DNA of 64,000 nucleotides from Gemmatimonadales bacterium (GCA_036781225.1 DAIQBJ010000001.1:1389-65388), one strand, 5' to 3'; shown: positions 4,574 through 63,025, counted from the stretch's first letter. The notes: generated from the letters alone by a model not told the origin. Translations and numbers: made by a program.

Positions 4574-4694
4574 TTCGACTCCCCAGGACGGTGTAGGGCG
4601 TCCTGGGATGGAGGCTACGCAAAGCATGTTGCGCGAGCGTAACGTTTTCGCGACGACTGTGTCACGTCGTCAGCGCGGCTGAGTCAGTCGATCC

Positions 4695-17347: not shown

Positions 17348-17363
17348 CGTGTCCCCCGTGTTG

Positions 17364-21176: not shown

Positions 21177-21178
21177 GG

Positions 21179-21889: not shown

Positions 21890-21901
21890 GCCTCGGTTCT
21901 C

Positions 21902-23071: not shown

Positions 23072-23101
23072 CGCCGTCCTCCTTGTTCCGACCGTCGCAT
23101 C

Positions 23102-24076: not shown

Positions 24077-24086
24077 CCCCCCGCCC

Positions 24087-34264: not shown

Positions 34265-35452
34265 TCAGCGACGCCCGCCGGCCATGAGTCGGCTCGCAGG
34301 GTGACACCGCAGCAAAAGCATCGCGGCCGGCCCAGCAAGGGCAACGACGCCGAGCGAAGCGAATGCAATCTGCCATGCACCGCCGGTGACGTCGAGTACC
34401 CAGCCGAAGAGTACCGGCGATAACGCACCCGCGAGCCACCCGATGGCGCCATAGAGGCCAAGCGCGGTACCGACCCCGGCCGCCGGCGTCACTTCCGTTA
34501 CGCCTGTGGAGAGCACCGGGGAATCACCAATGGCGAACATGTAGTAGAGCGCGCCGAGCGTAACGAGGAGCAGCGATGGTGCCGCGATGAGCCAGCCGAA
34601 GCAAAGCGACCCGAGAATACTGGTGAGCATGATCGTGATGGCGGCGGCCGTGCGCCCAATGCGGTCCGACAAATAGCCGCCCCCCAAGACGCCAACGACC
34701 CCGAGCGCAAGAATCGGGAACGCGGAGATCGACGCCCGCGCGGCTGCCACGTCGAGGTCGGCGCCCGCAGCAACGAAGCTCGCGGTGAGAAACGCGGTGA
34801 GCCAGCCCCAGATTCCCATCAACTCCCAGTTGTGAGCAAAGTATGCGAGGCACAGGAGGAATCCCGGCATCGTGAGCCGCTTGGGAATCACGGAGGCCGG
34901 CTCACGTCTCTCTCGATGATTTCGAAGCAGACGCATCGCACCAACAGCCCCGGCGAGAGCGACGAGGCCGAGCGCGACGAACGCCGCTCGCCACCCCAGG
35001 AATGCCGTCAGCGTGCCGGTAACCGCAAGCGAGATCGCTAAACCGCCCGCAAGCGAGGCCACGAATATCCCGACCGCACGACCTCGCTCTCGCGGCGCAC
35101 CAGCAGTCACCAGCTTGACACCAGGCATGTAGGTGCCACCGATGCCGATGCCGCCGAGCGCCTTCAGGAGCGCAGCCGATATCGGTCCAGAAGCGAAAAG
35201 TCCGAACGCGACCATCGAGACGGCGGCGCAAAACGCCGACCCTACAAAGATCACTGCCGCCGACCACCGATCGCTCAGCGCGCTCAGAGCAATGACGGCG
35301 ACGACGAACCCGGCCTGACCGGCCGCGGCGATCGCGCCGGCCTGGCTGTTCGACAATCCCCAGTCGTGGCGGAGGAGGGGCAACACCGCTGAGATATTGA
35401 GGTGGGTGGAAATCACAGCGAGCGAGCAGAGACCTAACAGAGTCGGCGTCAC
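34265..35452 (-). CDS. MFS transporter
   Basis: 395 aa, about 12 hydrophobic segments. Shares the YFAHNWELMGIWGWLTAFLT motif with the other two MFS ORFs in the window. Confidence 0.85.
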   Translation of the reverse strand: MTPTLLGLCSLAVISTHLNISAVLPLLRHDWGLSNSQAGAIAAAGQAGFVVAVIALSALSDRWSAAVIFVGSAFCAAVSMVAFGLFASGPISAALLKALGGIGIGGTYMPGVKLVTAGAPRERGRAVGIFVASLAGGLAISLAVTGTLTAFLGWRAAFVALGLVALAGAVGAMRLLRNHRERREPASVIPKRLTMPGFLLCLAYFAHNWELMGIWGWLTAFLTASFVAAGADLDVAAARASISAFPILALGVVGVLGGGYLSDRIGRTAAAITIMLTSILGSLCFGWLIAAPSLLLVTLGALYYMFAIGDSPVLSTGVTEVTPAAGVGTALGLYGAIGWLAGALSPVLFGWVLDVTGGAWQIAFASLGVVALAGPAAMLLLRCHPASRLMAGGRR

Positions 35453-36387
35453 ACGCCCTGCCCCGCTTCCTCCAGCTCGCGACCACCGACGTACTGCAGA
35501 GCGATCAGCGCGGGAAACAAAAGGAGCATGAAAATTGTCGTGGCGGCACTCGAGACCTGAAACGAATCGAGGTTGTAGGTGTCATAGAGCGCCGCCGGAT
35601 AGCTCTGGTTGATGGGCGTATTCAACAGGAAGCTTGCATTGAACTCTCCGAGGGAGATCGCGAATACCAGTAGCGAGCCGACCAAAATCGCATGCTTGAG
35701 ATTCGGAAGGATGACCCATCGCATCCGCTGCGACCACGTCGCGCCGAGGCTGGCCGCTGCCTGCTCGAGGGCGATGAAGTCAAAGCTGCGCAGAGTGTTC
35801 GTGACCGCACGGATCATGAAAGGCATGGTGTAGAGCAGGTGGCCAACCAGGATGATGTACCACGTGGGCCGTAGCGTCGTGTGAGCTTGAATTAGCGCAA
35901 TGGCCACGGCAATTCCTGGGATCGACATCGGCAAGAGCACGATCTCTTCCACGAGCGCTTGTCCGCGGAACCGGTACCGAACGAGCGCATACGACGCGGC
36001 GACGCCGATTACGGTCGTCAGCACGACGGAGACGACCGCGAGTTGAAGGGTGAAGAGGATCGTTCTGCCATACACGCGGAATACATAGCGGTACCACAGG
36101 GAGGTGAAGAAACCCGCCTGCGCCTGTGTACGCTCCACGAACACGCCGCCGCCCGTCGCCGGCGCGTGCCAGCCGGGACCGACTTCGCTGGCTGTGCCCA
36201 TCGCCTTGGACGTCGTCATGGCACCCCAGAACGAGACGGCGACGGGCGAAAGGATGGCGAGCGCGAGCAGTACGCTGATCAAATAAGCGACGCCGGTGAG
36301 GAATCGCACGCCCGCCGTGGTCAGCGCGATCGGCCGCGGCCGACCAGCGAGGGTTGCGGCGACGGTGTTAGCGCTGCTTGAAGACAT
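35449..36387 (-). CDS. ABC transporter permease (PotC/CysW-like)
   Basis: 312 aa from the ATG at 36387 (MSSSSANTV...) with EAA loop LEQAAASLGATWSQRMRWVILP. The track start at 36537 overlaps the upstream permease gene. Confidence 0.8.
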   Translation of the reverse strand: MSSSSANTVAATLAGRPRPIALTTAGVRFLTGVAYLISVLLALAILSPVAVSFWGAMTTSKAMGTASEVGPGWHAPATGGGVFVERTQAQAGFFTSLWYRYVFRVYGRTILFTLQLAVVSVVLTTVIGVAASYALVRYRFRGQALVEEIVLLPMSIPGIAVAIALIQAHTTLRPTWYIILVGHLLYTMPFMIRAVTNTLRSFDFIALEQAAASLGATWSQRMRWVILPNLKHAILVGSLLVFAISLGEFNASFLLNTPINQSYPAALYDTYNLDSFQVSSAATTIFMLLLFPALIALQYVGGRELEEAGQGV

Positions 36388-37258
36388 AGTGTTTCTCGCC
36401 CAGGCGGCGCAAGTACAGATTGGTCGTGAGTGTGACGACCAGCATGACGACGCAGAGGGCACTCGCGAACTCGAAGTTGGCGTATCCCGTGATCTCGAGA
36501 AAGATATCGACGGGCAGCAGGTTGAACTTTTTGGCAATGATCAACGCGACGCCGAAAGACCCCATGGAGACCGCGAAGGCCAGCGCCACGGTCGAGATGA
36601 TCGCTGGAAGGAGCAAGGGGACGAGGACATACCAGAGCCGCTGCCACAACGTCGCGCCGAGACTGCGGGCGGCGGCGTCGAGGTCGAAGTCGAATTTCCG
36701 GATCGCCGCTTCCAGCGTGAGCGTCGCGCGCGGGATCTCGAAGTATATGTATGCGACGACGAGGCCCGAAAGAGTGTAGGCCGTCATCGACAGATATGCT
36801 TCGCCCGTGAGCCAGTGCAGTACGGCAGGAATCGCGCCCCAACGTCCCAGCATGATCACGATCATGAATCCAACGATCACTCCCGAGAACGCCATCGGAA
36901 TCGTCAGTACGGCTCGAAACAGTCGCTTCCCCGGGAACCGCGTGCGCACCAGTACCCACGCCGGAGCGATGCACAGAATGACCGAGCCGATCGCGATGGC
37001 CAGGGACAGCACGACGCTGTGAAGCAGAGACGAGAGATAGTAGCCGTCACCAAACAGCTTCACATAGTTTTCGAGGGTGACCGTCTGCAGCCATTGCCCC
37101 GCACTCCAACCGCCAACCTGCTTGGTACGTCCCTCAAGGACGCCGCCGCCTGGCACGAGGCTGTTGGCTGCTAGATAGCAGAGCGGGTACAGCAGAAAGA
37201 CGAAGAGGAAGGCGACGAGCGGTAGTACGAGCAAACCGCCGCTCGCACGTTGCTTCAT
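36368..37258 (-). CDS. ABC transporter permease (PotB/CysT-like)
   Basis: 296 aa, six TM segments, with LDAAARSLGATLWQRLWYVLVP. Confidence 0.85.
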   Translation of the reverse strand: MKQRASGGLLVLPLVAFLFVFLLYPLCYLAANSLVPGGGVLEGRTKQVGGWSAGQWLQTVTLENYVKLFGDGYYLSSLLHSVVLSLAIAIGSVILCIAPAWVLVRTRFPGKRLFRAVLTIPMAFSGVIVGFMIVIMLGRWGAIPAVLHWLTGEAYLSMTAYTLSGLVVAYIYFEIPRATLTLEAAIRKFDFDLDAAARSLGATLWQRLWYVLVPLLLPAIISTVALAFAVSMGSFGVALIIAKKFNLLPVDIFLEITGYANFEFASALCVVMLVVTLTTNLYLRRLGEKHYVFKQR

Positions 37259-37283
37259 CGCCTTCGCTCTCCGATCGCCTGGC

Positions 37284-38369
37284 TCACCGAGCGCGACGGA
37301 CCTGCTCGATCCAGGCTTTCTTGTAAGCGTCGACCATCTTCACTTTCTGCGGCAGATCGTAAGGCTTGAGGCCGTCATACGAGCCGTAGAGAGGCTTCAT
37401 CTTGGCGGCGATCTCCGGAGTCAAGGCTCCGGGATGGATTGGCCGGAAGAATGACTCGGCGAACACGCGCTGAGCCTCTTCGGTATTGAGCCAGTCGAGC
37501 GCAAGCTTCGCTAGTCGCGGAGTCGGCGCGTTCTTCACGAGCGCAACGTTCAACGGAAATACCGTGGAGCCCTCGCACGGGATCACGACCTCCACCGGGC
37601 CGCCGTCGTGGTGCTTCATCTTGTAGCCGCTGCCGTCGGCATGGATCCAGATCGGAATCTCGCCCCGGAGCGAGGGGTTGTACGACGTCTCCTTGTTGTA
37701 CGAAATGATATTTGGGTGGAGCTTCTTCAGATACTCGATCCCTGGGGTGAAGTTGTCGTATGAGCCCCCGTGCACCCAGAGCGCCGTGAAGATGGCATCG
37801 AACGCGGTCCCCTGCACTGTTGGATCGTCATAAGCCACGAGATTCTTGTACTCGGGCTTGATCAGATCGCTCCAACACTTTGGGACGGCTGCCTTTGCGG
37901 CAGCGAGCGCCTTGGTGTTGACGACGAATGCAATCGTTCCGTAGTGGATGTTGAACCACCGACCGTCGGCGTCCTTGTGCTCTTTCGGGATGAGATCCCA
38001 GCCCTTCGGCTTGTATGGTTCGTGGAGGCCGCGCTCAGCGGCCTGCGAGCCAATCGCCGCGTTGTAGTAGACGATTGAGGCCTGCGGCTTTGGTTGCTCG
38101 GCGATGAGAGCCGCCATCGCGGTCACGCTCGATTTCATGTCGGGCGGCCATGTGACGCCGTACTTGTCGGTAAAGAATTTCTGCACGCCGCCCCAGTTCG
38201 CGTAGTTCGGCTGATGGTCGTAGCCGATCAGTGTTGTGCCTTCGGCCTTCTTCGCGTCCTCTAGCGCGGCCTTGAACTCAGCCTGTGCCTTGGCGTCGAA
38301 GTGATTGGCCCGTACGCCATGTGGCCATAGTGGAATGATTGCGACGAGTGCCGCGATCAGAAGCCTCAT
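37284..38369 (-). CDS. ABC transporter periplasmic substrate-binding protein (family 1, Pot/Fe(III)-like)
   Basis: 361 aa with signal peptide MRLLIAALVAIIPLWPHGVRA. Located between the ATPase and permease genes with a 4-nt overlap. Confidence 0.75.
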   Translation of the reverse strand: MRLLIAALVAIIPLWPHGVRANHFDAKAQAEFKAALEDAKKAEGTTLIGYDHQPNYANWGGVQKFFTDKYGVTWPPDMKSSVTAMAALIAEQPKPQASIVYYNAAIGSQAAERGLHEPYKPKGWDLIPKEHKDADGRWFNIHYGTIAFVVNTKALAAAKAAVPKCWSDLIKPEYKNLVAYDDPTVQGTAFDAIFTALWVHGGSYDNFTPGIEYLKKLHPNIISYNKETSYNPSLRGEIPIWIHADGSGYKMKHHDGGPVEVVIPCEGSTVFPLNVALVKNAPTPRLAKLALDWLNTEEAQRVFAESFFRPIHPGALTPEIAAKMKPLYGSYDGLKPYDLPQKVKMVDAYKKAWIEQVRRAR

Positions 38370-39415
38370 GGGTCCTCCTTGTTCAGGACATGGATCTTGT
38401 CCACGTCCACCCGAACAGGAACAACATCGCCGACGTTGATTCGCTGCGATGCGCCCACGTCAAGCAGGACGCGATGGCCGGTCGCGGCGGAGGCGCGGAG
38501 CCGGATCCGGCTACCCAGGTACACCACGTCTTCGACCTTGAGAGAGAAATGTGGCGACGTCCCATCACTACAGACGCACACGTCTTCGGGCCTGAACATC
38601 ACGACGCGCTCACCCGCGGGAGCGGGATGTCCGGCAGCAGCAACAGAGCCGAACGGCAGCACGAACGCCCCGCGACCGTCGCACACGCATGGAATCAGAT
38701 TGGCGTTGCCGATAAACCTGGCGACGAAAAGCGAAGCAGGGCGGCTATAGATGTCGGCTGGTGTCCCCGTCTGCACTACGCGGCCGCTGCGCATCACGGC
38801 GACCTGGTCCCCCAGCGAGAGTGCTTCCGTCTGGTCGTGCGTGACGTAGACGGTCGTGGTGCGAAACTCCGTCAAAAACCGACGTAGCTCAGCACGAAGA
38901 TCGTCGCGGATCTGTGCGTCGAGCGCCGACAGCGGCTCGTCCATGAGAAGGATCTTGGGATTGAACACCATCGCCCGGGCGAGGGCCACGCGCTGCGCCT
39001 CACCGCCGGAAATCTGGCGGATCCGCTTGTCCCGAAGCTGTTCGATCTTCATCGTCGAGAGCATCCACGAGACGCGTTCCCGGCGCTCAGCTGTTGCGAC
39101 CCCACGAACTTTGAGGCCGAAGCCGACATTCTCTCCGACGGTCATATTTGGGAAGAGCGCGTAAGACTGGAAGACGACGCCGGCATCGCGTCGTTCTGCT
39201 GGAACCGCCGTAACGTCCTTCCCGTCGATCAACACCCGTCCTTCAGTCGTCTCGCCGAGGCCGCCAATGACTTTCAGCGCGGTGGACTTGCCCGATCCCG
39301 ACGGTCCGAGCACCGCCGTCACCTTGTCTTCGGGAACGGTGAGCGAGACGTGGTCGAGCGCGCGTGTGCCGTCCGGGTAAGTCACGCCGACGTCGATCAG
39401 CTCGATCGTGGCCAT
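38366..39415 (-). CDS. ABC transporter ATP-binding protein (PotA/CysA-like with C-terminal TOBE-like part)
   Basis: 349 aa from the ATG at 39415 (MATIELIDVGVTY...) with VLGPSGSGKSTAL, ISGGEAQRVALARAM and LLMDEPLSALD. The track start at 39871 is an extension. Confidence 0.9.
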   Translation of the reverse strand: MATIELIDVGVTYPDGTRALDHVSLTVPEDKVTAVLGPSGSGKSTALKVIGGLGETTEGRVLIDGKDVTAVPAERRDAGVVFQSYALFPNMTVGENVGFGLKVRGVATAERRERVSWMLSTMKIEQLRDKRIRQISGGEAQRVALARAMVFNPKILLMDEPLSALDAQIRDDLRAELRRFLTEFRTTTVYVTHDQTEALSLGDQVAVMRSGRVVQTGTPADIYSRPASLFVARFIGNANLIPCVCDGRGAFVLPFGSVAAAGHPAPAGERVVMFRPEDVCVCSDGTSPHFSLKVEDVVYLGSRIRLRASAATGHRVLLDVGASQRINVGDVVPVRVDVDKIHVLNKEDP

Positions 39416-39434: not shown

Positions 39435-39659
39435 CTAGAACCAGTACCAGCGTTGCGACGCCCGGGTGGCCTCACCCAGCGCCGGCGGCGGGGTGCGACG
39501 GACGGCGACGACGTACGCCATCGTGGCCACGACCGCGGAGACGAGGACGAGCCAGAAGTCCCGAGTCGCAAAGCCCACGTAGGCGGTTGCCGCAGCAACA
39601 AGTCCAGCTTCGGTGACCAAAAAACTCCACCAGGCGAACCGGCGCAGACCCCGCGGCAT
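39435..39659 (-). CDS. Possible small two-TM membrane protein (74 aa)
   Basis: Its ATG lies 1 nt after the stop of the NarI-like gene. Two hydrophobic stretches are visible (FAWWSFLVTEAGLVAAATAYVGF, FWLVLVSAVVATMAYVVAV). No family recognised. Confidence 0.4.
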   Translation of the reverse strand: MPRGLRRFAWWSFLVTEAGLVAAATAYVGFATRDFWLVLVSAVVATMAYVVAVRRTPPPALGEATRASQRWYWF

Positions 39660-39660
39660 C

Positions 39661-40458
39661 TCAGCGGCTCCCTACGCGCGGCTTCAGGAGTCCTTCCATG
39701 ACCGTGCGGACCTTGGCCTCTCGGATTGCCGGTTGCGAATAGAAGATGCGGCCGAGTGGGGCCGCGAAGACATGGATCATGCGGCTCCACCCGAGATACG
39801 CGAGAAAGCCGGACGCCAGTACGGCATGGGTCATCCAAAAGAACGAATAGGATCCGGTGTACGGAGCCCATCCGCGCAGCGCCTCGCCCATCCAGTAGCC
39901 GAGCAGGATCCAGCCGAAACCGGGCTGCGCCGGCACGTTGGCGAAATGGAGACCCTGGGCGATGAATCCCGTCAGAACAACAAGCAGCAGGAAGATCGTG
40001 CCGGGCGTGTCATTGAACTTTGCTTCATCCGTTCCTGCAGTCATCGCTCCGCGCACGAGCGCGATCAACAGTCCGACCAGAAGGACCATGCCCGACACGT
40101 TCAAGCCGAACTTGAGGAAGAGCCAGCCGGCGTTTCCGGTCATGAACGGCTCGGACGGCAGATATTTCGTGAGAAGCGCGGTCAGGATGTCGAAGACGAA
40201 GAGAACGGAAAACCCCCAGGAAATCAGCATATGGCGCGTCCACGGAAGGCGGCCGCGTAGCCGAATGCGTCGCTGAACGACGACCTCGTCGGCGTACGCC
40301 TGCGCGAGCGCGGCGGCGTCGACAGCGCCGAGCGGTATGAACCGACCACTGGCACCGAAGATCACTGCAAGCTTCGAGAAGAGGTTGCGATAGAGGCCGA
40401 TGAATAGGGCGCCGATGAAGAGCGGGATGAGGATCCAGAACAGCGCCATCAATGTCAT
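39661..40458 (-). CDS. Integral membrane subunit, NarI/DsrM-like (putative di-haem b quinol-interacting anchor)
   Basis: 265 aa with about 5-6 TM segments and His residues inside predicted helices (WTRHMLISWG, GLHFAN, WMTHAVL, RMIHVFAAP). Directly follows the Mo/FeS subunit genes. Confidence 0.5.
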   Translation of the reverse strand: MTLMALFWILIPLFIGALFIGLYRNLFSKLAVIFGASGRFIPLGAVDAAALAQAYADEVVVQRRIRLRGRLPWTRHMLISWGFSVLFVFDILTALLTKYLPSEPFMTGNAGWLFLKFGLNVSGMVLLVGLLIALVRGAMTAGTDEAKFNDTPGTIFLLLVVLTGFIAQGLHFANVPAQPGFGWILLGYWMGEALRGWAPYTGSYSFFWMTHAVLASGFLAYLGWSRMIHVFAAPLGRIFYSQPAIREAKVRTVMEGLLKPRVGSR

Positions 40459-40467
40459 CGCCGCCTC

Positions 40468-40980
40468 CTACCGGATCACGAACATCGCCGGCGCGGCCGG
40501 CCCACCGACACGCTCGCCGCCTGACTTGGCGGCGAGTCGTTCCAAGTCGGCCATCTCACCGCTGATGATCGCTTTGGTTGGACACACCTCCTCACACGCT
40601 CGCGGCAGCTCGGCCGGACGGTCCGCGCAGAACGTGCACTTCGACATCTTGCCCTCCGCGCCGAACTGAGGGACGCCGAACGGACAGGCCCAGAAGCAGA
40701 ACATGCAGCCAACGCACGTTGCCTGATCGACCAGGACGACTCCATCCGTGCGCTTGGTGATCGCGCCGACAGGACATGATTGCAGGCACGGCGCGTGGTC
40801 ACAGTGCAGGCACGGCATCGACAGGTTGCGTGTGCCGACATTCGGATAAACACCCGTCTCGATCTTCACGATTTGCCGCCACGAAACCGCGCCTGTTGCG
40901 TTCCAGGTCGCGCACGCAACTTCGCAGGCGTAACAGCCGGTGCATTTGCCGATGTCGAACAGCCAGCCTCGGCTCGCCAT
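40468..40980 (-). CDS. Four-cluster [4Fe-4S] ferredoxin subunit (DmsB/PsrB-like)
   Basis: 170 aa from the ATG at 40980 (MASRGWLFDIGKCTGC...). Four Cys groups: CTGCYACEVAC, CLHCDHAPCLQSCP, CVGCMFCFWACP, CTFCADR...ACEEVCP. No twin-arginine motif. Confidence 0.85.
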   Translation of the reverse strand: MASRGWLFDIGKCTGCYACEVACATWNATGAVSWRQIVKIETGVYPNVGTRNLSMPCLHCDHAPCLQSCPVGAITKRTDGVVLVDQATCVGCMFCFWACPFGVPQFGAEGKMSKCTFCADRPAELPRACEEVCPTKAIISGEMADLERLAAKSGGERVGGPAAPAMFVIR

Positions 40981-40985
40981 TGCGC

Positions 40986-43076
40986 CTACACCTTCCTGAC
41001 TCGGACTTTGCACTCGTTGTAGCCGATGCCGCCTGAAATCGGATTCACATTCGTCCCGAGAATCGGATTGATGTGGGTGCCGCGTCCTTTCGCAATGCCT
41101 TGCCAGTGTCCGAAGCCGTGACCATGGCGAACGCACACAACGCCAGGCCGGATGCCCGGTCGCACCTTCGCTCGAATCGTGACCGCCGCCTGCGGAGAGG
41201 CCACCTCGATGCGGTCTCCATCCTTGATTCCCAAGCGGGCGGCATCGCTCGCGTTGAGCTCGGCCCAGTTCTCGCTACGGATCTTCATGAGGATCGGATT
41301 GTTCTGCGTCGTGAGGTTGCAGTGCATCTCGAATTTGGTATTGATCAACTGGAATGGGTAGTCGGCGTCGGGAATCACACTGCGCTCTCGGTATTCCGGC
41401 AGCGCGTTGTACCCGTTCTTCGCGAACGCCTCGGACATCAGCTCGATCTTGCCGGTCGGGGTTGAAAAGCCCGACTGCCGGTACTTGTGATACTTCAGCT
41501 CGCCCGACCAGAATCCTGTTTTCTTCATCGTCTCGAGGTCAGTGGGCAAGCCACCGATGATCCGACGTCCCCACTCTTCCCACGAGTTCCACCGAAACAG
41601 GTCGCCATATCCCATCTTTTCGGCGAGCCCGCGGACGATCTCGTATACCGGCCGTGCCTCGTGGTATGGCGGCAGCGCCGGCACGCAGATAATCGCTTCC
41701 GGTGGCATGGCGAGGCTCTGACGGATCTCCGCACGCTCGTAGAACGACGCTTCGGGCAGCACGAACTCGCATTCTGCTGCCGTCTCGCTGAAGTACGTAT
41801 CGATCGCCACCGACAGCTCCAGCGCCTGGACCGCCTTGCGGTACAGCGCCGTGTTCGGCTCACTCATGACCGGATTCGTGCATTGGAAGAACAAGCCCTT
41901 CACGGGGTACGGCGTTCCTTCGAGAATCGCCTTCGGCAACAGTTGCGTTGGAAGATCAGGCGCGAGCGGGTAGCCCATGGCGACATGCAGCGGCGGGCGC
42001 GCGGGCTTGGTCTTGCGCTCGTCGGGAATCGTGAGCGGCGGCTGAAGTGGCGCCCAATCCTTGAGGATCAAATTGCCCGGCCCGTCGATCTGCCCGGTGA
42101 GCGCGTCGAGGATGTACACGAGCCGCGAGGCGTCGAGGCCGTTGGCGTAGTTTCCAAGTCCCTTGAATGTCTCGATGATCGCCGGGCGCGCGCTCGCGAA
42201 CTCGCGCGCCAGCCGCCGGATGGTATTGGCCGCGACACCGGTGATGCTCGCCGCCCATTCGGGCGTGTAGCCTCGCGCGATCACGTGCCGACAGAACTCG
42301 TCAAAGCCGTGAGTCCACTGACGGCAGAACGGCTCATCGTAGAGCCGCTCCTGCACGATGACGTGCGCCATTGCGAAGAGCAGCGCACCGTCTGTCCCCG
42401 GCGCGATCGGGATCCACTCGTTAGCCTTCTCCGCCGTGGCTGTGAAGGCCGGGTCGACCACGATGAGACGAGCGCCGTTTGAGACCGCGGCCAACAGACC
42501 CCGGCTCTCGTAGAGATTCTGATTGGCACCCAGCATGTTTATGCCGAGGAGCATCACGAACTTCGCGTTCTCGTAGTCGTGGACGGGAAAGACGTGCCCG
42601 AGCACCGTTAGCGCAGCCAGACGCCGATCCTGCTCGCACGCGGAAGTGTGCCCGTAATAGTTCGGGGTGCCGTAGCACTCGGTGAGAAAGAGCTGAGCGA
42701 AGACGCTGTTGGGATCGACGTGCCAGAGGTACGCCACGGCCTCCGGCCCGTACTTCGCCTTGATGTCAGTCAGCTTCCGTGCGATCTGCGTGAACGCTTC
42801 GTCCCAGCTGATGCGCTCGAACCGGTTTGGGCCGATGCGTCGCATCGGGTGCTTGAGGCGATTGTCGTCCTTCGCGAGCACGTGGCTCGCTTCGCCCTTC
42901 ACACAGCGTGAGCCCTTCGTGGACGCTCGTGTATTGCCGCGAACATAGACGACTTCGCCTCGGCGCGTGAAGACCTCCGTCGGACAGGTCCATGGGCATA
43001 CGTAGCAGATGCCAGGAGTCATCTCCGCGTCGCGGAGCCGTTCCAGCGTCTCCGTCGTGCCGGCCGTCTCCTTCAT
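40986..43076 (-). CDS. Molybdopterin (bis-MGD) oxidoreductase catalytic subunit, DMSO-reductase superfamily, no Tat signal
   Basis: 696 aa with an N-terminal [4Fe-4S] motif C-x2-C-x3-C-x26-C (ICYVCPWTCPTEV...GSRCVKGE) and a candidate Cys ligand in YGHTSACEQD. The N-terminus MKETAGTTETLERLRDAEM lacks RR. Confidence 0.8.
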   Translation of the reverse strand: MKETAGTTETLERLRDAEMTPGICYVCPWTCPTEVFTRRGEVVYVRGNTRASTKGSRCVKGEASHVLAKDDNRLKHPMRRIGPNRFERISWDEAFTQIARKLTDIKAKYGPEAVAYLWHVDPNSVFAQLFLTECYGTPNYYGHTSACEQDRRLAALTVLGHVFPVHDYENAKFVMLLGINMLGANQNLYESRGLLAAVSNGARLIVVDPAFTATAEKANEWIPIAPGTDGALLFAMAHVIVQERLYDEPFCRQWTHGFDEFCRHVIARGYTPEWAASITGVAANTIRRLAREFASARPAIIETFKGLGNYANGLDASRLVYILDALTGQIDGPGNLILKDWAPLQPPLTIPDERKTKPARPPLHVAMGYPLAPDLPTQLLPKAILEGTPYPVKGLFFQCTNPVMSEPNTALYRKAVQALELSVAIDTYFSETAAECEFVLPEASFYERAEIRQSLAMPPEAIICVPALPPYHEARPVYEIVRGLAEKMGYGDLFRWNSWEEWGRRIIGGLPTDLETMKKTGFWSGELKYHKYRQSGFSTPTGKIELMSEAFAKNGYNALPEYRERSVIPDADYPFQLINTKFEMHCNLTTQNNPILMKIRSENWAELNASDAARLGIKDGDRIEVASPQAAVTIRAKVRPGIRPGVVCVRHGHGFGHWQGIAKGRGTHINPILGTNVNPISGGIGYNECKVRVRKV

Positions 43077-43145: not shown

Positions 43146-44333
43146 CTACTTCATCCACTTCGGCGTGAAGACCTCGAAGTCGCCATTCTTGACCTGAAGC
43201 CACGACATCTCGCGGATCATGAAGTGTTCGGGCGCGTTGCCTTTGCCGATGGTCACGCTCGGGATGAGACCGCCCTTCCAGTCCCTGATGGTTTCCAGCG
43301 CCTCAACCAACCCATCGCGCGTGACCTTGTTCGTCTCCTTCGGCATGCGGCCAAGCGCCTCGGTGACGACCTGAGCGCCCGCGTACCCCCACATGTGGAT
43401 CGCGTCCGGCTCCTCATTCGGGTAGTACTTCTTGAGAAGGGCGACGAACTGCTTCATCTGCGGATCCGGGGAATTCGGACGGCGGAAGATCGTGCTGAAG
43501 TAAGCGCCGTCGACCGCTTCCTTGCCCGCGAGCTCGATCACCTTCGGGCTCTGCCCGAAGAACACCACGACCACCGGCGCCTTCCATCCAAGCTTTTGTC
43601 GTTCGGTGAAGAAGCGCGCAGCGTGCTCCGGTGCACAGGAGCAGAGGTGCACATCGGGATTCGCTCCCTTCATCTTGATGACCTGCGCGCTCACGTCCAG
43701 CTCGTTTTTCTCATAGGGCTCCTTCGCGACGAGCTGAACGCCGTACTTCGAAAGGACCGACTCGATGCCTTCGATGTGCGTCTTTCCGGATGGGTCGTTC
43801 TGGTAGAGGAGGGATACGGTCTTCGCCCCAAGCTGCTCCTTCGCAAAACGCACGAGATCCTGGCCTTCCGTTTTGTAGCTCGGGTAGAGCGGGAAGACGT
43901 ACTTCGACGGGAAGTCCAGGTTCTTGGCGGCTCCCGTGCCTGCGCCAAGGAGCGGAACCTTGTTTTCTGCGATGTAGTCGATCACGGCACTCGTCGGCGC
44001 CGAGCCGAGCGGGTTGGCGATCGCAAAGCAGTTATCGCGCTCGATGAACTCCTTCACGACGACCGTCGTCCGTGAGGGGTTGTACTGATCGTCGACCATC
44101 TTGAAGTTGATCTTTCGACCGTTCACGCCCCCCTGTTCGTTGACATGCCGGTACCAGACGTCAGCGCCTTTCCCCATGCGGAAGTACGTGGACTCTTTGC
44201 CCGTCATCGGCTGATAGGAGCACAGCAAGATCTCCTTATCGGTTACGCCAGGCGCCTGAGCATTGGCTACGTCCGCGAGCCCCATTCCGGCCGCGGCGAC
44301 CAGCATCATTACTGCGATCATCCGTTTGTGCAT
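43146..44333 (-). CDS. Liv-type (PBP1) ABC substrate-binding protein
   Basis: 395 aa from the ATG at 44333 preceded by AGGAGGG, with signal peptide MHKRMIAVMMLVAAAGMGLADVANA. Confidence 0.85.
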   Translation of the reverse strand: MHKRMIAVMMLVAAAGMGLADVANAQAPGVTDKEILLCSYQPMTGKESTYFRMGKGADVWYRHVNEQGGVNGRKINFKMVDDQYNPSRTTVVVKEFIERDNCFAIANPLGSAPTSAVIDYIAENKVPLLGAGTGAAKNLDFPSKYVFPLYPSYKTEGQDLVRFAKEQLGAKTVSLLYQNDPSGKTHIEGIESVLSKYGVQLVAKEPYEKNELDVSAQVIKMKGANPDVHLCSCAPEHAARFFTERQKLGWKAPVVVVFFGQSPKVIELAGKEAVDGAYFSTIFRRPNSPDPQMKQFVALLKKYYPNEEPDAIHMWGYAGAQVVTEALGRMPKETNKVTRDGLVEALETIRDWKGGLIPSVTIGKGNAPEHFMIREMSWLQVKNGDFEVFTPKWMK

Positions 44334-44366
44334 GACCGACCCTCCTGGATTGGCGAACACTGCGCC

Positions 44367-45077
44367 TTACCCCGCCGCCTGACGACCGAGGTACGACCGC
44401 ACTACGTCGTTACGATCCTTCAGTTCCTCCGCTGTACCCTCGAGCACGACTCGGCCCACCCGGAGCACATAGGAATAGTGGGCAATGGACAATGCCTGAT
44501 AGGCGTTCTGCTCCACGAGCAGCACGGTGACGCCGTCCGCATTGATGGTGCGAATGATCTTGAAAATCTCGGCAACGAGCTTGGGCGCGAGCCCGAGCGA
44601 CGGCTCGTCGAGCAAAAGGATCCTCGGTCGAGCCATCAATGCCCGGGCGATCGCAAGCATCTGCTGCTCACCACCTGAGAGCGAGCCGCCCGCCTGTTTG
44701 CTACGCCGATCGAGGATTGGGAAGTAGCTGTAGACACGCGCGAGGTCATCTACGAGGCTGCCATCGCGGCAGTACGCACCCATACGGAGGTTCTCGTGGA
44801 CCGAGAGTCCCGCGAAGATACGTCGGCCTTCCGGAACCTGCACGACTCCGCGCCGGACGATTTCCTCGGGGGTGAGCCGGTCGAGGCGGTCGCCGTCAAT
44901 CGCGATGCTACCGGCAGAGGTGCGCAATAGCCCCGAGATGGCACGCAAGGTTGTACTCTTGCCGGCGCCATTGGCGCCTAAGAGCGCGACGATTTGCCCA
45001 TCGCTGACCTTTAGCGTGACTCCTTTCAGGGCCTTGATTTGTCCGTAGCCCACCTCGACTGTCTCGAGGCTAAGCAC
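44367..45077 (-). CDS. Liv-type ABC ATP-binding protein (LivF-like)
   Basis: LLGANGAGKSTTL, LSGGEQQMLAIARAL, LLLDEPSLGLAP. A likely GTG start at 45077 overlaps the LivG-like stop by 8 nt; the track start is at 45095. Confidence 0.85.
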   Translation of the reverse strand: MLSLETVEVGYGQIKALKGVTLKVSDGQIVALLGANGAGKSTTLRAISGLLRTSAGSIAIDGDRLDRLTPEEIVRRGVVQVPEGRRIFAGLSVHENLRMGAYCRDGSLVDDLARVYSYFPILDRRSKQAGGSLSGGEQQMLAIARALMARPRILLLDEPSLGLAPKLVAEIFKIIRTINADGVTVLLVEQNAYQALSIAHYSYVLRVGRVVLEGTAEELKDRNDVVRSYLGRQAAG

Positions 45078-45843
45078 GGACGGGCACCGCCTCACCCAAG
45101 TACGCCTCTACAACCGCTGGGTGATTCAAGATCTCCTGCGGTGACCCTCGGGCGATGTTTCGGCCGAAGTCCAGCACGGTAACTTCGTCGCAGACCGCAC
45201 GCACCAGCGACATATCGTGCTCAACGACGAGGACGGTTACTTTCCGCTCGCGATTGATATTGCGAATGATCACGCTCAGTTCGCGCGTTTCCTCCTCGTT
45301 GCAGCCGGCGACGGGCTCGTCCAAAAGCAACAGCGTCGGCTCAGCAGCAAGCGCGCGCGCGAGTTCGACACGCTTCTGATACCCGAATGGCAGGTGGACA
45401 ACCTGCTGGTCGAGCACGTCCGTCAAACCGAACATTTCGGCCATTCGATCCGCGCGCTCTCGCAGCGCCGCTTCGCGCTTGAGACCTGACGGCAGTGAAA
45501 GCATCGCCGCCAGCGGATTCCCGAGATGGCTATGCATACCGATCAGGATGTTGTCGAGCGTCGAACGGGATCGAAACAGATTGATGTTCTGAAACGTGCG
45601 GGCGATCCCCAGACGGATCACGTCGTGAGGGCCGAGATTGCTGAGATCGCGACCACGGTACTCGATGCTCCCGTTGGCGTACGTCTGGAAGCGGCTGATG
45701 CAATTGAAGAGTGTTGTCTTCCCGGCACCATTCGGCCCGATGAGGCCGTAGATGCTTCCAGCAGGAACGTTCATGTCGACGCCATCGAGCGCGGTCAGGC
45801 CCCCAAAGAAGACGCGCACGCCGCGGACGGTCAAAAGGTCCAC
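45070..45843 (-). CDS. Liv-type ABC ATP-binding protein (LivG-like)
   Basis: 257 aa; LIGPNGAGKTTLFN, LPFGYQKRVELARAL, LLLDEPVAG. Confidence 0.9.
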   Translation of the reverse strand: MDLLTVRGVRVFFGGLTALDGVDMNVPAGSIYGLIGPNGAGKTTLFNCISRFQTYANGSIEYRGRDLSNLGPHDVIRLGIARTFQNINLFRSRSTLDNILIGMHSHLGNPLAAMLSLPSGLKREAALRERADRMAEMFGLTDVLDQQVVHLPFGYQKRVELARALAAEPTLLLLDEPVAGCNEEETRELSVIIRNINRERKVTVLVVEHDMSLVRAVCDEVTVLDFGRNIARGSPQEILNHPAVVEAYLGEAVPVRA

Positions 45844-45845
45844 GG

Positions 45846-46835
45846 CTATCCTCGTCCCACCGAGACCTGGTTCACGACACGGGTTATTGGCTGCGCGCAG
45901 CGGCGGTGGATGCGCCGGAACAGGCGCGCGAGCACGCCGGCCATACCCTCAGGCGCGAAGAGAAGAACCGCGATCAATGCGACGCCGTTCAGGATGTAGG
46001 CGAAGTCTCGCAGCTCGCCGAGGTAGTACGGCACCATCACCACGAACCCGGCGCCGAGGGCGGAACCCAAGAGCGATCCCTGGCCCCCAACGACCACAGC
46101 CGTGAGGAAATCGACGGACAGCCAAGCATCGCCGAACGTCTCCGTGGAGACGTAGCGGTTGTGGTGCGCGAACAGCGCGCCGCCCGCACCCGTCATCGCC
46201 GCGCTGATCGAGAACGCGAGCGTTTTGTATAGCCGCAGATGGATGCCCATCGCCTCCGCGGCACGTTCGGAATCGCGCATGGCCACAAATGCCCGGCCTA
46301 CACCAGATCGAATGATGCTCCACGAGGCGAGCATGACGAGCGCCATGACGACGAGGACGACGTAGTAAAAGCCAACGTCTTTCACTTGCAACCCGAGGAC
46401 CGAATTCTTTCCGAGCTGAATGCCTTCACGGCCCTCGAAGACGGGCCAGTTGTTCAGGATGGCGCCAACAGCCAGTGCGAAGCCCAAGGTGGCGATCGCC
46501 AGAAACGCGCCACCAAGTCGCAGGCAGATCATTCCGAGCCCGAAGCCGATGACGCCCGCGAGTACGGCGCCGACCAGCAGCCCCGGAACCACCGACGTTC
46601 CGAGGTGCTTCGCCATCAATGCTGTCGCGTACGCTCCAATGGCGAAGAAGCCACCATGGCCGACGGTCACGAGCCCCGTATACCCGGTCAAGAGATTTAC
46701 GCCGACGGCTGCGATCACGTAGGCAAAGGTGAAGGCGAGCAGGCTCGCATAGAAACTCGGAATGACGGCTGGAAGCGCGAGCAGAATGCCGAAGGCCAGA
46801 ACCGTCAGCGTCAGCTGCCAGCCTCGCTCCGACAT
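45846..46835 (-). CDS. Liv-type ABC permease (LivM-like)
   Basis: 329 aa, polytopic, with LTGYTGLVTVGHGGFFAIGAY. Confidence 0.85.
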   Translation of the reverse strand: MSERGWQLTLTVLAFGILLALPAVIPSFYASLLAFTFAYVIAAVGVNLLTGYTGLVTVGHGGFFAIGAYATALMAKHLGTSVVPGLLVGAVLAGVIGFGLGMICLRLGGAFLAIATLGFALAVGAILNNWPVFEGREGIQLGKNSVLGLQVKDVGFYYVVLVVMALVMLASWSIIRSGVGRAFVAMRDSERAAEAMGIHLRLYKTLAFSISAAMTGAGGALFAHHNRYVSTETFGDAWLSVDFLTAVVVGGQGSLLGSALGAGFVVMVPYYLGELRDFAYILNGVALIAVLLFAPEGMAGVLARLFRRIHRRCAQPITRVVNQVSVGRG

Positions 46836-46838
46836 CTT

Positions 46839-47708
46839 CTAAATCTCCCGCCGCGCCCTACCGCCGAATAGACCGCGTGGCTTAAAGGCAAGCACGAGAA
46901 CGATCAACACGAAAGCGATCGTGACTTTGTACTGTGCGCCGAGGTAGCCGCCGGCAAGATTTTCCGCGACCCCGATAATGAGCGAGCCAATCACCGCGCC
47001 GGGCAGCGAATACAATCCGCCGAACACCGCACCGACGTAGCCCTTGACGAGTACGCCGTCCATCATCTGCGTGCTGACGTACACGAGTGGGGCGAGCAGA
47101 ATTCCGCTCACGGCGGCCAACATTCCGCCCACCGCCCAGGTCAGCAGCACGATCGAACGTACGGGTATCCCCATCAGCTGGGCCGCAACGGGATCTTCGG
47201 TGATCGCTCGCATCGCGATGCCGGGCTTCGTGAACCGGAAGAAGAGATAGAGGATCGCGCCAACAACCGCTGCCACCAGCATGTTGAAGAGATGGGCTTG
47301 GCTGATGAGGGTGCCGCCGATGGAAATCGGTGCGCTCGAAAACAGTGCGGGAAAGGACTTGGTGTCGCGGCCCCAGATCCAACCGGCCACGCCGTGAAGG
47401 ATGTAGAAGACGCCTAAGGTTGCGGTGAACAACGTCAGCCAGTCGGCGCCTTCGATTGGCCGCATGATGAGACGCTCGACGACGACAGCCAGCGCCGTGA
47501 CGGCGAGGACCGTCGCGAATGTGGCCACAATGAGGCTCCCACGCGAATGTTCCAGGACCACGAGCGCGACGAACGCCCCGACCATGCTGAAGTCGCCCTG
47601 CGCGAGATTGATCGTGCGGGTGTTGCGGAATATGAGAACGATTCCGATCGCTGTGAGGGCGTAGAGACTACCGGTCGCGAGGCCGCTGACGAACTGCTGC
47701 GCCAGCAT
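46839..47708 (-). CDS. Liv-type ABC permease (LivH-like)
   Basis: 289 aa, polytopic, with GIVLIFRNTRTINLAQGDFSMVGAF. Confidence 0.85.
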   Translation of the reverse strand: MLAQQFVSGLATGSLYALTAIGIVLIFRNTRTINLAQGDFSMVGAFVALVVLEHSRGSLIVATFATVLAVTALAVVVERLIMRPIEGADWLTLFTATLGVFYILHGVAGWIWGRDTKSFPALFSSAPISIGGTLISQAHLFNMLVAAVVGAILYLFFRFTKPGIAMRAITEDPVAAQLMGIPVRSIVLLTWAVGGMLAAVSGILLAPLVYVSTQMMDGVLVKGYVGAVFGGLYSLPGAVIGSLIIGVAENLAGGYLGAQYKVTIAFVLIVLVLAFKPRGLFGGRARREI

Positions 47709-47715
47709 TTCTGAG

Positions 47716-48177
47716 CTACGCCCGCCGCTTCAGCAGACGCAGTATGGGGCGCTGTCGGACGGTCGTTGCGGCAGTCAGCGCGTTACATGCTGTGCCGCGC
47801 TGCTCATTCTCGAGCTTCATCAGAGTTCGCATCCGGCCGAGATCGTCACGACCGGCCTTGTCGTCAACGAGCTGCGGAGCCGCCTTCAAGAGCGCTCGGT
47901 AGACCGGGTGCGCCTGCGCCGATGCGGAAATGCCGTAGAAAACGAATGGGCCACGCCGGGTCGCGATCAGGAGCCCGCTCCGCCGCAGCGGACCGAGATG
48001 ACGTGAGATCTGGTATTGCGGCAGTCGAAGAATTGCGACGAGCTCGCAGACGCAGAGATCTGGGGTTCGAGAGAGCAGGCTCAGGATGCGAAGTCGTGTG
48101 TCGTCAGCGAGAAGCCGCAGAAACTTCGCGCCGTTGGTCGGCAGTTTCAGCGAGGGGGCATATGCACCGTTGCGCAT
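47716..48177 (-). CDS. arsR: ArsR/SmtB family metalloregulator with the CVC As(III)-site motif
   Basis: 153 aa; LRLLADDTRLRILSLLSRTPDLCVCELVAILRLPQYQISRHLGPLRRSGLL (ELCVC-type site) plus a ~50-aa C-terminal extension. Confidence 0.85.
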   Translation of the reverse strand: MRNGAYAPSLKLPTNGAKFLRLLADDTRLRILSLLSRTPDLCVCELVAILRLPQYQISRHLGPLRRSGLLIATRRGPFVFYGISASAQAHPVYRALLKAAPQLVDDKAGRDDLGRMRTLMKLENEQRGTACNALTAATTVRQRPILRLLKRRA

Positions 48178-48194: not shown

Positions 48195-48223
48195 AGCATA
48201 TGGACGCCGCCTACGTCTGTCAA
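48195..48223 (-). promoter_or_regulatory. Sigma-70-like promoter upstream of arsR
   Basis: On the minus strand: TTGACA (48223-48218), 17 nt, TATGCT (48200-48195), about 17 nt before the arsR ATG at 48177. Confidence 0.4.
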
Positions 48224-52686: not shown

Positions 52687-52695
52687 CGGCAGTAA

Positions 52696-53184
52696 CTACA
52701 CGAGGTTGGTGTGGCGCCCGTAGATGAGGCCGCTCACACCGACAGCTTCGACGACCCCATTGTTCACACGAAGTTCGATTTGCGGCAGCTGTTGACTGGC
52801 CTGCCCGATGATCAACGCGCCCGCTTTCGCAGGATCGAAGGTGCTCCAGTGGCACGGACAGATAAACATCTTCCGCTCGGGTTTGAACGCCACCGGACAG
52901 CCTTTGTGCGTACACAGGGTTGAGAATGCGACGATGTCACGCGCGGGGCCGACACCGTTCGTTGCCGCTTCGGCCAGTCGGAGCAACACGGCTGGAGAGC
53001 CTGCGTCCGGATAGGCAAAGACGATAGCGGCGCCGGGACCAACGTCCTTGAGCGGTGCAACCGCGACGACGGGATAGTGCGATGGATTCGCGGCGTCTGT
53101 TCTCGGAACGAAGGACTGCGACGCTAGGACGCCGGCGACGCCCGTCGATCCCAGTTTGATGAAATGCCGACGAGTCGGCATCAC
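52696..53184 (-). CDS. aioB: Arsenite oxidase small (Rieske) subunit with Tat signal
   Basis: Tat motif TRRHFIKLG and Rieske motifs CTHKGCPV...CPCHWSTF. Start is the GTG at 53184 or the ATG at 53181, after GAGGGGGG. Confidence 0.9.
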   Translation of the reverse strand: MMPTRRHFIKLGSTGVAGVLASQSFVPRTDAANPSHYPVVAVAPLKDVGPGAAIVFAYPDAGSPAVLLRLAEAATNGVGPARDIVAFSTLCTHKGCPVAFKPERKMFICPCHWSTFDPAKAGALIIGQASQQLPQIELRVNNGVVEAVGVSGLIYGRHTNLV

Positions 53185-61728: not shown

Positions 61729-61774
61729 CAGCGTGATCCCGGCGCCATCCGCCAAGAGACGGGAGGACACGCGC

Positions 61775-63019: not shown

Positions 63020-63025
63020 CGCTCC

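Follow-up and report, generated by a model that had tools for sequence, protein, structure and literature searches.

The 64,000-nucleotide stretch of DNA analysed here (the window), from a Gemmatimonadales bacterium (GCA_036781225.1 DAIQBJ010000001.1:1389-65388), carries within 39435-43076 four minus-strand open reading frames (ORFs), transcribed in the order catalytic subunit, iron-sulfur (FeS) subunit, membrane anchor and 74-residue protein. They constitute a complex iron-sulfur molybdoenzyme (CISM), with catalytic, ferredoxin and anchor subunits encoded together, which has a NarGHI-like topology and an ArrAB/PsrAB-like catalytic dimer and is a member of none of these systems. We propose that the complex acts on the cytoplasmic side as a quinol-linked reductase of pentavalent methyl- or organo-arsenicals taken up by the cell, such as methylarsenate and dimethylarsenate, a reading to which we assign a probability of roughly 40%; that the substrate is an arsenical at all appears probable. 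We infer both the substrate and the catalytic direction from the features laid out below, beginning with those of the four genes themselves:

43076..40986, minus strand: catalytic subunit with a Mo/W-bis-pyranopterin guanine dinucleotide (bisPGD) cofactor, 696 residues; PF04879, PF00384 and PF01568; without a twin-arginine translocation (Tat) signal; N-terminal [4Fe-4S] motif; predicted Mo ligand Cys147
40980..40468, minus strand: four-cluster [4Fe-4S] ferredoxin subunit of the DmsB/PsrB type, 170 residues; 16 Cys in four groups; Fer4_11
40458..39661, minus strand: NarI-like five-helix membrane anchor, 265 residues; PF02665 near its cut-off, residues H76/H211/H229 and Foldseek matches; probable haem b and quinone/quinol site
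39659..39435, minus strand: two-helix mini-subunit of the anchor, 74 residues; length conservation, dN/dS and a natural fusion in P0180

The gaps between the four genes are 5, 9 and 1 nucleotides (nt), and a Shine-Dalgarno-like GGAGG or GAAGG lies upstream of each start. The ferredoxin length is counted from an ATG, as a longer 222-residue ORF from a GTG would overlap the upstream gene. A preliminary description made from this stretch alone had reported the same four ORFs, and their sizes and order are as given there. The order of catalytic, four-cluster ferredoxin and anchor genes recurs in the homologous loci L001-3, L043, L044, L034 and L125.

The catalytic subunit is a member of the Mo/W-bisPGD superfamily, also known as the dimethyl sulfoxide (DMSO) reductase or MopB superfamily. 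All its Pfam matches are above their cut-offs (PF00384 Molybdopterin at 141 bits, PF01568 Molydop_binding at 70 and PF04879 Molybdop_Fe4S4 at 29). Its FeS motif, C24-x2-C27-x3-C31-x26-C58, which the preliminary description had picked out, is real and invariant in 33 homologues, as is Cys147, which aligns with the Mo ligands PsrA Cys173 and ArrA Cys193. A structure model with a predicted local distance difference test (pLDDT) value of 90.9 gives template-modelling (TM) scores of 0.88 to PsrA and 0.89 to ArrA, and of 0.75-0.89 to many MopB-family structures. The closest PDB entry by sequence is Thermus thermophilus PsrA 2vpw (E 9.5e-90), followed by acetylene hydratase, F420-dependent formate dehydrogenase and ArrA 6cz7. 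None of the NCBIfam equivalog cut-offs is reached: the best score is to PhsA (375 against 694 bits), and those to Fdh-alpha (258/666), DmsA (254/778), ArrA (171/1600) and NarG (67/1084) all lie below as well. The more than 4900 homologues are all either without a name or automatically named 'thiosulfate/polysulfide reductase'; those from Rokubacteria/Methylomirabilota are 72-96% identical, and those from Alphaproteobacteria, Chloroflexi and others 53-58%. The window itself matches metagenome-assembled genomes of Rokubacteria at 91-92% and also occurs in public soil metagenomes. The plasmid collection held no family member, only a true PhsA at 29% identity.

Two readings of the enzyme as a member of a known family can be weighed directly on these data. 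The automatic annotation of the Joint Genome Institute (JGI), 'thiosulfate reductase/polysulfide reductase chain A', would make it an ordinary polysulfide or thiosulfate reductase. Indeed, PhsA and PsrA are the best sequence matches; the PsrABC/PhsABC systems are the closest known ones by sequence (29-33% identity) and share the [4Fe-4S] motif, the Cys Mo ligand and the four-cluster ferredoxin partner. However, the PhsA score is little more than half its cut-off and the annotated, real PhsA is only 29% identical. Further, Psr and Phs are Tat-exported, periplasm-facing enzymes on a haem-free eight-helix NrfD/PsrC anchor, whereas the enzyme here is Tat-less and has a NarI-like anchor of about five helices with a mini-subunit. 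It also has an invariant Lys305 in place of PsrA Arg332 and H-T-S-x-C in place of PsrA S-V-S-L-C, and its neighbourhood contains arsenic genes and no sulfur-metabolism genes. A formate dehydrogenase, which would oxidise formate from the neighbouring tetrahydrofolate (THF) one-carbon (C1) pathway, finds some support in the cytoplasmic location, the length of about 700 residues (the size of FdhF), the FeS partner, the formate-THF ligase (FTHFS) and MTHFR genes nearby and the 258 bits to Fdh-alpha. This score is far below the cut-off of 666, and the sequence C147-E148-Q149, invariant in the clade, lacks the catalytic His directly after the Mo cysteine; on this missing His a formate dehydrogenase is therefore to be excluded. 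Both readings are disfavoured because they fail the tested defining features: the polysulfide or thiosulfate reductase is very improbable, and the formate dehydrogenase is hardly credible.

Around the Mo cysteine, the motif H-T-S-[A/G]-C-E-Q-D-R-R is invariant across the clade and is closer to the H-S-S-V-C-A-E-A-H-K of ArrA (His189, Ser190, Cys193, Lys198) than to the S-V-S-L-C of PsrA. The counterparts of ArrA His189, Ser190 and Lys198 are H143, T144 and R152; together with Arg165 and Tyr166, these three ArrA residues are reported to bind arsenate (6cz7 study). ArrAB of Shewanella sp. ANA-3 (6cz7) and ArxAB thus resemble the enzyme here in a fold match equal to that of PsrA, in H-[ST]-S-x-C with a basic residue five positions on, in the link to arsenic genes and in the ferredoxin partner. 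They differ in that ArrA is only 22% identical, is Tat-exported and periplasmic and has both Arg165 and Tyr166, while the enzyme here is shorter by about 120 residues.

The complex faces the cytoplasm. The catalytic ORF begins at the first start codon following an in-frame stop, which therefore rules out a hidden upstream start with a twin-arginine (RR) signal. Of 120 homologues (612-723 residues), 118 have neither an RR motif nor a hydrophobic stretch ahead of the FeS motif, which starts at residue 23-25; the two exceptions look like over-extended gene calls. As an internal control, AioB, encoded in the same window, bears the classic Tat motif TRRHFIK; therefore, the organism uses Tat for its periplasmic arsenite oxidase and not for this enzyme. 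The preliminary description, which had likewise seen no Tat signal, had named in advance an upstream RR start, a place in a characterised clade or a lack of conserved His in the anchor homologues as findings that would speak against it; there is no such start, no characterised clade takes the enzyme in and the anchor His residues are conserved.

The ferredoxin has 16 Cys in four CxxCxxCxxxC-type groups, as expected for the four clusters ascribed to it earlier, and matches Pfam Fer4_11; its NCBIfam scores to DmsB (118/214), ArrB (88/450) and NarH (50/524) are below the cut-offs. In all family loci with sequence beyond the catalytic gene, the ferredoxin gene comes immediately after it. For the anchor, the NarI-like label is moderately supported. 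PF02665 (NarI gamma) is its sole Pfam family match, at 22.5 bits against a gathering cut-off of 22.9, alongside a weak QmoC match, and its homologues at 70-95% identity have precomputed PF02665 matches. Its AlphaFold model is moderate (pLDDT 68.7), and the top five Foldseek matches are all NarI chains (E 0.03-0.08, TM 0.37-0.46), with cytochrome b6 next. The His residues that had been noticed in this polytopic protein, H76, H211 and H229, are invariant in homologues. The H211-H229 spacing of 18 residues equals that of NarI His187-His205, and H76 and H229 sit at the cytoplasmic helix ends, as the proximal-haem ligands of NarI do; the NarI haem-ligand positions used in this comparison we take to be established. 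Hydropathy and positive-inside analysis suggests an N-terminus outside and a C-terminus inside, with about five helices, of which four cleared the hydropathy threshold and the fifth is placed provisionally around H211. The anchor is thus predicted to bind haem and a quinone.

The 74-residue ORF is a real gene under purifying selection. It is exactly 74 residues long in five loci (L001-3, L043 and L044) and in nearly all of 35 protein clusters, so that the co-occurrence proposed as a check in the preliminary description, which had seen in it a protein with two transmembrane segments, is found. Its dN/dS of 0.11-0.22 is similar to that of the anchor (0.08-0.13), and a 64-residue ORF at the equivalent position in L034 is homologous to it (hhalign 79%). 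In the 353-residue protein P0180, on a contig of 1.9 kb, the 74-residue subunit is naturally fused to the anchor C-terminus via a linker of about 30 residues. The protein thus extends the anchor by two helices, and both of its ends lie in the cytoplasm. Its N-terminus, RRFAWW, was considered as a hitch-hiker Tat signal and rejected: it is internal in the P0180 fusion, following the cytoplasmic C-terminus of the anchor, and both termini of the protein are positively charged, and the arginines are therefore best taken as positive-inside residues. The proteobacterial loci L047, L048 and L050 carry a NarI-like gene of 372-376 residues with a three-helix N-terminal extension; this extension was considered as a fused 74-residue subunit and shows no homology to it (hhalign probability 1.9%).

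The resulting architecture may be compared with several known complexes. NarGHI shares the cytoplasm-facing Mo subunit, the four-cluster ferredoxin, the NarI-type anchor and the need for substrate import, whereas the subunits here are about half the size of NarG and NarH, the Mo ligand is Cys rather than Asp, only three of the four NarI His are present and there is an extra 74-residue subunit. HdrDE, DsrMK and HmeCD likewise have a small NarI-family haem-b protein that passes quinol electrons to a cytoplasmic partner, which in the window is a Mo enzyme with a ferredoxin and not a CCG-domain protein; L034 does encode such a CCG-domain (HdrD-like) protein, after the anchor and the mini-ORF. SoeA is much larger than the catalytic subunit here, and SoeC is an NrfD-type anchor rather than a NarI-like one; further, the Soe context is sulfur, not arsenic, and no Soe-specific model is among the matches listed. 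SoeABC does share with the complex the lack of a Tat signal, the cytoplasmic orientation, the three quinone-linked subunits and the superfamily (PMC6620896; otherwise general knowledge). A Soe-like candidate in Thioalkalivibrio (PMC6620896) is a different enzyme. The description of the window's complex as a compact, cytoplasm-facing and probably quinone-linked Mo enzyme outside the standard Psr/Phs/Arr/Ttr types thus holds, in that it is Tat-less, has a NarI-like anchor and passes no equivalog cut-off.

The genes around the four-gene locus carry the case for an arsenical substrate. Those that matter here are, in the order in which they are read along the minus strand, followed by the remaining arsenic genes at the start of the window:

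53857..54336, minus strand: candidate C-As lyase of the ArsI/CadI family (NF041414 at 129 bits, cut-off 116; vicinal Cys pair in a VNCCH motif)
48279..53184, minus strand: aioB-aioA (arsenite oxidase), pentapeptide-repeat protein and MIP channel, directly upstream of arsR (NCBIfam and Pfam)
47716..48177, minus strand: ArsR-family repressor, first gene of the operon-like array (HTH_5; NF033788 at 70 bits, cut-off 55; DLCVCELV motif)
43146..47708, minus strand: LivHMGF and LivK-type ATP-binding cassette (ABC) importer, directly upstream of the catalytic gene (Pfam; Peripla_BP_6 binding protein at 43146..44333)
34265..39415, minus strand: second importer (PhnT2/PhnS2-like ATPase, binding protein, two permeases) and major facilitator superfamily (MFS) transporter, directly downstream of the four genes (NCBIfam PhnT2/phnS2 best, below cut-offs)
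15456..26638, minus strand: corrinoid/THF methyl-transfer module (tblastn with reference proteins from L035, L036 and L050; Pfam, NCBIfam)
4046..4627, minus strand: protein like low-molecular-weight protein tyrosine phosphatase (LMW-PTP)/ArsC (ArsC-type models at 65 bits, below cut-offs)
2575..3456, plus strand: ArsM (NF008823 at 365 bits, cut-off 263)
960..1466, minus strand: ArsN1, arsinothricin-resistance N-acetyltransferase (ArsN1a at 212 bits, cut-off 170)

The minus-strand order is hence arsI-like, aioB-aioA, pentapeptide, MIP, arsR, livHMGF-LivK, the four enzyme genes, the PhnT2/PhnS2-like importer and the MFS gene. The arsenite oxidase and channel assignments rest on scores above the cut-offs (TIGR02693 at 997 bits, TIGR02694 at 160 and, for MIP, TIGR00861 at 175 against 171). 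From arsR through the MFS gene no gap exceeds 69 nt, the one between MIP and arsR is about 100 nt and those around arsI are several hundred nt. The ArsR protein has a CVC arsenite-binding motif, and its gene lies 7 nt upstream of livH. The sole sigma-70-like site on the minus strand in the 19.5 kb from 34 to 53.5 kb, a consensus match only, is at 48223..48195, just upstream of arsR; a terminator scan gave sites no commoner than chance. We infer that the array is probably controlled by ArsR. The position between importers and arsenic genes given in the preliminary description is confirmed in the stronger form that the enzyme genes lie within the same arsR-headed array. Further, since ArsI, ArsM and ArsN1 all pass curated cut-offs, the window is an organoarsenical island and not merely DNA beside arsenic genes. 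As to what is imported, the closest solved binding proteins for the second importer are AfuA 4r72, a pyridoxal phosphate-binding protein (6wce) and a putative 2-aminoethylphosphonate binder (4r6y), whose ligands, presumably including that of AfuA, are organophosphates. PDB searches with the two binding proteins and with the URO-D proteins described below gave distant matches only, from which no ligand is assignable.

The association with arsenic genes persists across loci. We collected 21 non-redundant family loci (at least 52% identity) and 98 paralogue loci (25-37% identity) and scored their neighbours by tblastn with reference proteins, counting loci with at least 4 kb of flank (18 family, 69 paralogue). 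A scan of a genome collection with the single protein had yielded three close loci and many paralogues at 25-32%, which were reused as a negative control, and of 80 loci from a metagenome scan with an alignment, about ten were close. Arsenic genes (aioBA, pentapeptide, MIP, arsR, arsD, arsA) occur in 14 of the 18 family loci and in none of the 69 paralogue loci (Fisher p 6e-13), corrinoid genes (MtaA/URO-D-type, B12-binding, RACo, Pterin_bind) in 10/18 against 1/69 (p 1.1e-07) and LivK orthologues, 58-88% identical, in 11/18 against 0/69 (p 1.1e-09), although the loci are related to each other, so that these p-values overstate the evidence. In the Rokubacteria clade to which the window belongs, the enzyme genes lie inside an arsR-headed operon-like array; in proteobacterial loci, the gene next after that of the ferredoxin is arsD, sometimes accompanied by arsA, or aioBA-MIP stands ahead of the enzyme genes. 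For instance, L050 reads aioB-aioA-penta-MIP-mopB-FeS-livHMGFK-UROD-B12-NarI-like, and L123 reads UROD-B12-RACo-CobW-GntR / Pterin_bind / mopB-FeS-arsD-arsA-livHMGFK-UROD-B12. The aioB-aioA-pentapeptide-MIP unit adjoins family members in L036, L047 and L050, and also in L045, where aioB is missing at the contig end. In a neighbour-joining tree, the arsenic-linked clades of Rokubacteria and Proteobacteria are sisters. On the basis of 18 loci, we provisionally delimit an arsenic-linked cytoplasmic MopB clade by at least 52% identity, the motif H-T-S-[AG]-C-E-Q-D-R-R, the lack of Tat and the aio/ars/MIP and Liv-type importer neighbours; the window protein fits this description. The earlier range of candidate substrates, from an oxyanion to an aromatic, is narrowed strongly by this comparative context towards arsenic chemistry.

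Two side observations concern these neighbours. The pentapeptide protein beside AioBA is 326-335 residues long and 44-55% identical between Rokubacteria and Proteobacteria. A 230-residue protein with a faint Hemopexin match only is encoded between the ferredoxin gene and arsR or arsD in L038 (10690-11382), L039 and L049 (2258-2947), the L038 and L049 versions being 68% identical.

One arsenic-based alternative is a cytoplasmic inorganic arsenate reductase, serving as a Mo-dependent substitute for ArsC or as an inward-facing respiratory enzyme and passing arsenite to ArsD/ArsA or the MIP channel. In its favour, mopB-FeS-arsD-arsA stands where arsC would be found in an arsRDABC operon, and both the fold and the H-[ST]-S-x-C...basic motif are similar to those of ArrA. 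However, the window already has the LMW-PTP/ArsC-like protein, which could itself account for the reduction of inorganic arsenate, provided that it is functional; a Mo-dependent arsenate reductase would set up a futile As(V)/As(III) cycle with AioAB and MIP; the Arg165/Tyr166 pair of ArrA is absent; and the two importers and the corrinoid genes would be left unexplained. This alternative is accordingly improbable.

The corrinoid/THF module of the window comprises MTHFR, a methyl-THF:corrinoid methyltransferase (Pterin_bind), a homocysteine-binding S-methyl_trans protein, the RACo activator, CobW and GntR, as well as two MtaA/URO-D-type methyltransferases, each paired with a B12-binding protein. 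Further C1 genes encode the formate-THF ligase, a formiminotransferase and, on the opposite strand, SHMT, and genes for CoA ligases, an enoyl-CoA hydratase and a thiolase are also present in the window. Corrinoid genes additionally flank family members in L035, L046-48, L050, L123 and L124. The window and L035, which comes from a 4.2-Mb genome, share 75% identity in the URO-D protein, 77% in the B12-binding protein and 62% in RACo, against only 53% in the catalytic subunit, a pattern suggesting that the corrinoid module has been transferred horizontally. Both phyla retain two distinct URO-D/B12 pairs. Between the MTHFR and AMP-dependent ligase genes lies a 223-residue minus-strand ORF (26646-27317) with no Pfam or NCBIfam match.

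The same module supports the possibility of a non-arsenic substrate, namely an imported methylated or aromatic compound undergoing, for example, sulfoxide or N-oxide reduction, catechol-type dehydroxylation or methyl-compound catabolism, with the arsenic genes co-located for other reasons. The corrinoid/THF genes, CoA ligases, enoyl-CoA hydratase and thiolase would suit the catabolism of organic acids or methyl groups. Peripla_BP_6 proteins commonly bind amino or aromatic acids (general knowledge), with no close PDB match here, and arsenic genes are not visible in L034, L035, L124 and L125. Moreover, distant relatives of the catalytic subunit occur in Collinsella and Eggerthella, organisms known for Mo-dependent catechol dehydroxylases. 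Set against this are the array shared with arsR in Rokubacteria, the direct adjacency of arsD/arsA or aioBA-MIP in Proteobacteria and the absence of such arsenic genes from all 69 paralogue loci, which leave a non-arsenic substrate doubtful, with a real though minor share of the probability.

On the preferred reading, as a reductase of pentavalent organoarsenicals, the two array-encoded ABC importers would bring pentavalent methyl- or organo-arsenicals into the cell, and electrons would pass from membrane quinol through haem b and the four FeS clusters to Mo on the cytoplasmic side and on to R-As(V), following the logic of NarGHI. The trivalent products would be demethylated by the neighbouring corrinoid methyltransferases, with transfer of the methyl group to THF, or alternatively or additionally by the ArsI C-As lyase. 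Arsenite would leave via the MIP channel (ArsD/ArsA in relatives) and be re-oxidised outside by AioAB. The window would thus encode import, reduction, two routes of demethylation, export and re-oxidation. The reductive direction is favoured for four reasons. First, known NarI-type modules (NarGHI, HdrDE and DsrMK) feed quinol electrons to a cytoplasmic reductase. Second, the substrate of a cytoplasmic reductase must enter the cell, and importer genes lie on either side of the four genes. Third, ArsI and methanogen demethylation act on trivalent species. Fourth, arsD/arsA, or MIP with AioAB, form a sink for the released arsenite.

Several observations weigh against this reading. Everything said of the substrate rests on gene neighbourhood, and some family members lie in neighbourhoods of another kind: the basal L034 and L125 sit with radical-SAM, DUF169 and second-MopB genes and no arsenic genes were seen there, and L035 and L124 show corrinoid genes and no ars genes within 8-10 kb. 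The corrinoid module resembles a split methionine synthase or general methyl-compound catabolism, and the substrate could be a non-arsenic one. In the active site, the Arg165/Tyr166 pair of ArrA is not conserved, Arg165 lying opposite a gap and Tyr166 opposite His119. In the anchor, nothing corresponds to the fourth NarI haem-ligand His, and the conserved His residues therefore give good support for one haem b while leaving a second uncertain. Further, the proteobacterial NarI-like gene follows a URO-D/B12 pair and not the ferredoxin gene, closing a URO-D/B12-binding/NarI-like trio after livK (e.g., L050 17968-21355), and its partnership with the Mo enzyme in these loci is assumed. The NarI-type anchor of the preliminary description hence stands in so far as the matches are to NarI rather than NrfD, while the missing ligand and the position of the proteobacterial gene make it weaker than was implied. 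Finally, the catalytic direction is not readable from sequence: ArrA-type enzymes, like Mo-bisPGD arsenic enzymes in general, are reversible, and nitrite oxidoreductase (Nxr), a complex of NarGHI-like architecture, oxidises its substrate.

This last point bears on a reading in which the same complex works as a cytoplasmic oxidase of trivalent methylarsenicals or arsenite, with the quinone pool as electron acceptor. Between corrinoid demethylations such an oxidase would restore the pentavalent state, as in a reversed Challenger pathway, and it would detoxify trivalent methylarsenical (MAs(III)) and dimethylarsenical (DMAs(III)). The arsenic and corrinoid neighbourhood is identical for both directions; each of the two URO-D/B12 pairs could handle one of two consecutive demethylations, As(V) should be the chemically easier donor for methyl-cation transfer to Co(I), and ArsD, encoded beside the ferredoxin gene, could deliver trivalent arsenic. 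The precedents of reversibility and of Nxr (general knowledge) also count for it. On the other hand, the well-studied NarI-type modules all feed cytoplasmic reductases, and importers for oxidised species together with an ArsI that requires trivalent substrate fit a reductase better; moreover, trivalent DMAs and MAs are the experimental demethylation substrates (PMC10579292). Taken together, an oxidase is unlikely.

The reductase proposal would fill a place in a pathway with some precedent. To our knowledge, no bacterial genes for corrinoid-dependent arsenic demethylation have been reported. A methylotrophic methanogen demethylates trivalent and not pentavalent DMAs and MAs, which its authors attribute to corrinoid-dependent methyl transfer, and DMAs(V) first needs reduction by bacterial activity, with a reductase not identified in that work (PMC10579292). 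Cleavage of MAs(III) by ArsI is likewise a precedent for the pathway, and the MAs(V) reductase gene was still sought in Burkholderia MR1 (PMC4457076). In the literature searched, neither this clade nor a Mo-dependent methylarsenical reductase nor an aioBA-pentapeptide-MIP/mopB-FeS/corrinoid supercluster is described, and searches for arsenobetaine-degradation genes, an aioBA-pentapeptide-MIP unit and uncharacterised arsenic-linked DMSO-reductase clades returned none matching this family. Neither arsenic nor molybdenum is mentioned in two papers (PMC10418091, PMC12478193) on corrinoid methyltransferase clusters and the demethylation of glycine betaine. We tentatively put forward the possibility that the clade might be the sought bacterial MAs(V)/DMAs(V) reductase, possibly respiratory, within a horizontally shared and hitherto undescribed pathway of import, reduction by a Mo enzyme, demethylation onto THF by B12-dependent MtaA-type methyltransferases (or by ArsI instead), arsenite export and AioAB oxidation in aerobic soil Rokubacteria and marine and soil Alphaproteobacteria.

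Methylated arsenicals govern arsenic toxicity in soils, rice paddies and the sea, and the reduction of MAs(V) and DMAs(V) precedes any known demethylation, by enzymes not identified in the literature searched (PMC4457076, PMC10579292). If the proposal is true, the clade would provide a gene marker for organoarsenical turnover in metagenomes, would add a fourth arsenic-transforming branch of Mo-bisPGD enzymes beside Aio, Arr and Arx, and would link arsenic cycling to B12 and one-carbon metabolism. Whatever the substrate, the complex is a clear case of modular re-use in which a catalytic dimer of the PsrA/ArrA type is set on an inward-facing NarI-type anchor with a two-helix subunit that is sometimes fused to it.

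Some further features of the loci and of the window may be recorded. In L034 (8001-18109) and L125 (930-9303), the second MopB, which is fused to an acetyltransferase in L034, is accompanied by radical-SAM and DUF169 genes, to which L034 adds DUF2064. The position of the NarI-like gene in the proteobacterial loci may reflect a tie of this haem-b protein to the corrinoid system, for example in reductive activation. The arsenic cluster at the window start also contains a second GNAT and a MarR-type regulator divergent from ArsM. Three related MFS transporters (36% and 26% identical) are encoded at 34265-35452, at the end of the array, at 54704-55930, beside arsI, and at 3-884, next to arsN1. None of the three reaches a curated cut-off, and they may be ArsK/ArsJ-like permeases for organoarsenicals. 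The plus-strand genes of 56745-64000 encode an alanine racemase-like/D-serine dehydratase protein, hydantoinases A and B and a further Peripla_BP_6 protein with an ABC ATPase. The last 6-8 kb have a G+C content of 68-71%, compared with 60-66% elsewhere in the window, which may mark a boundary of the island.

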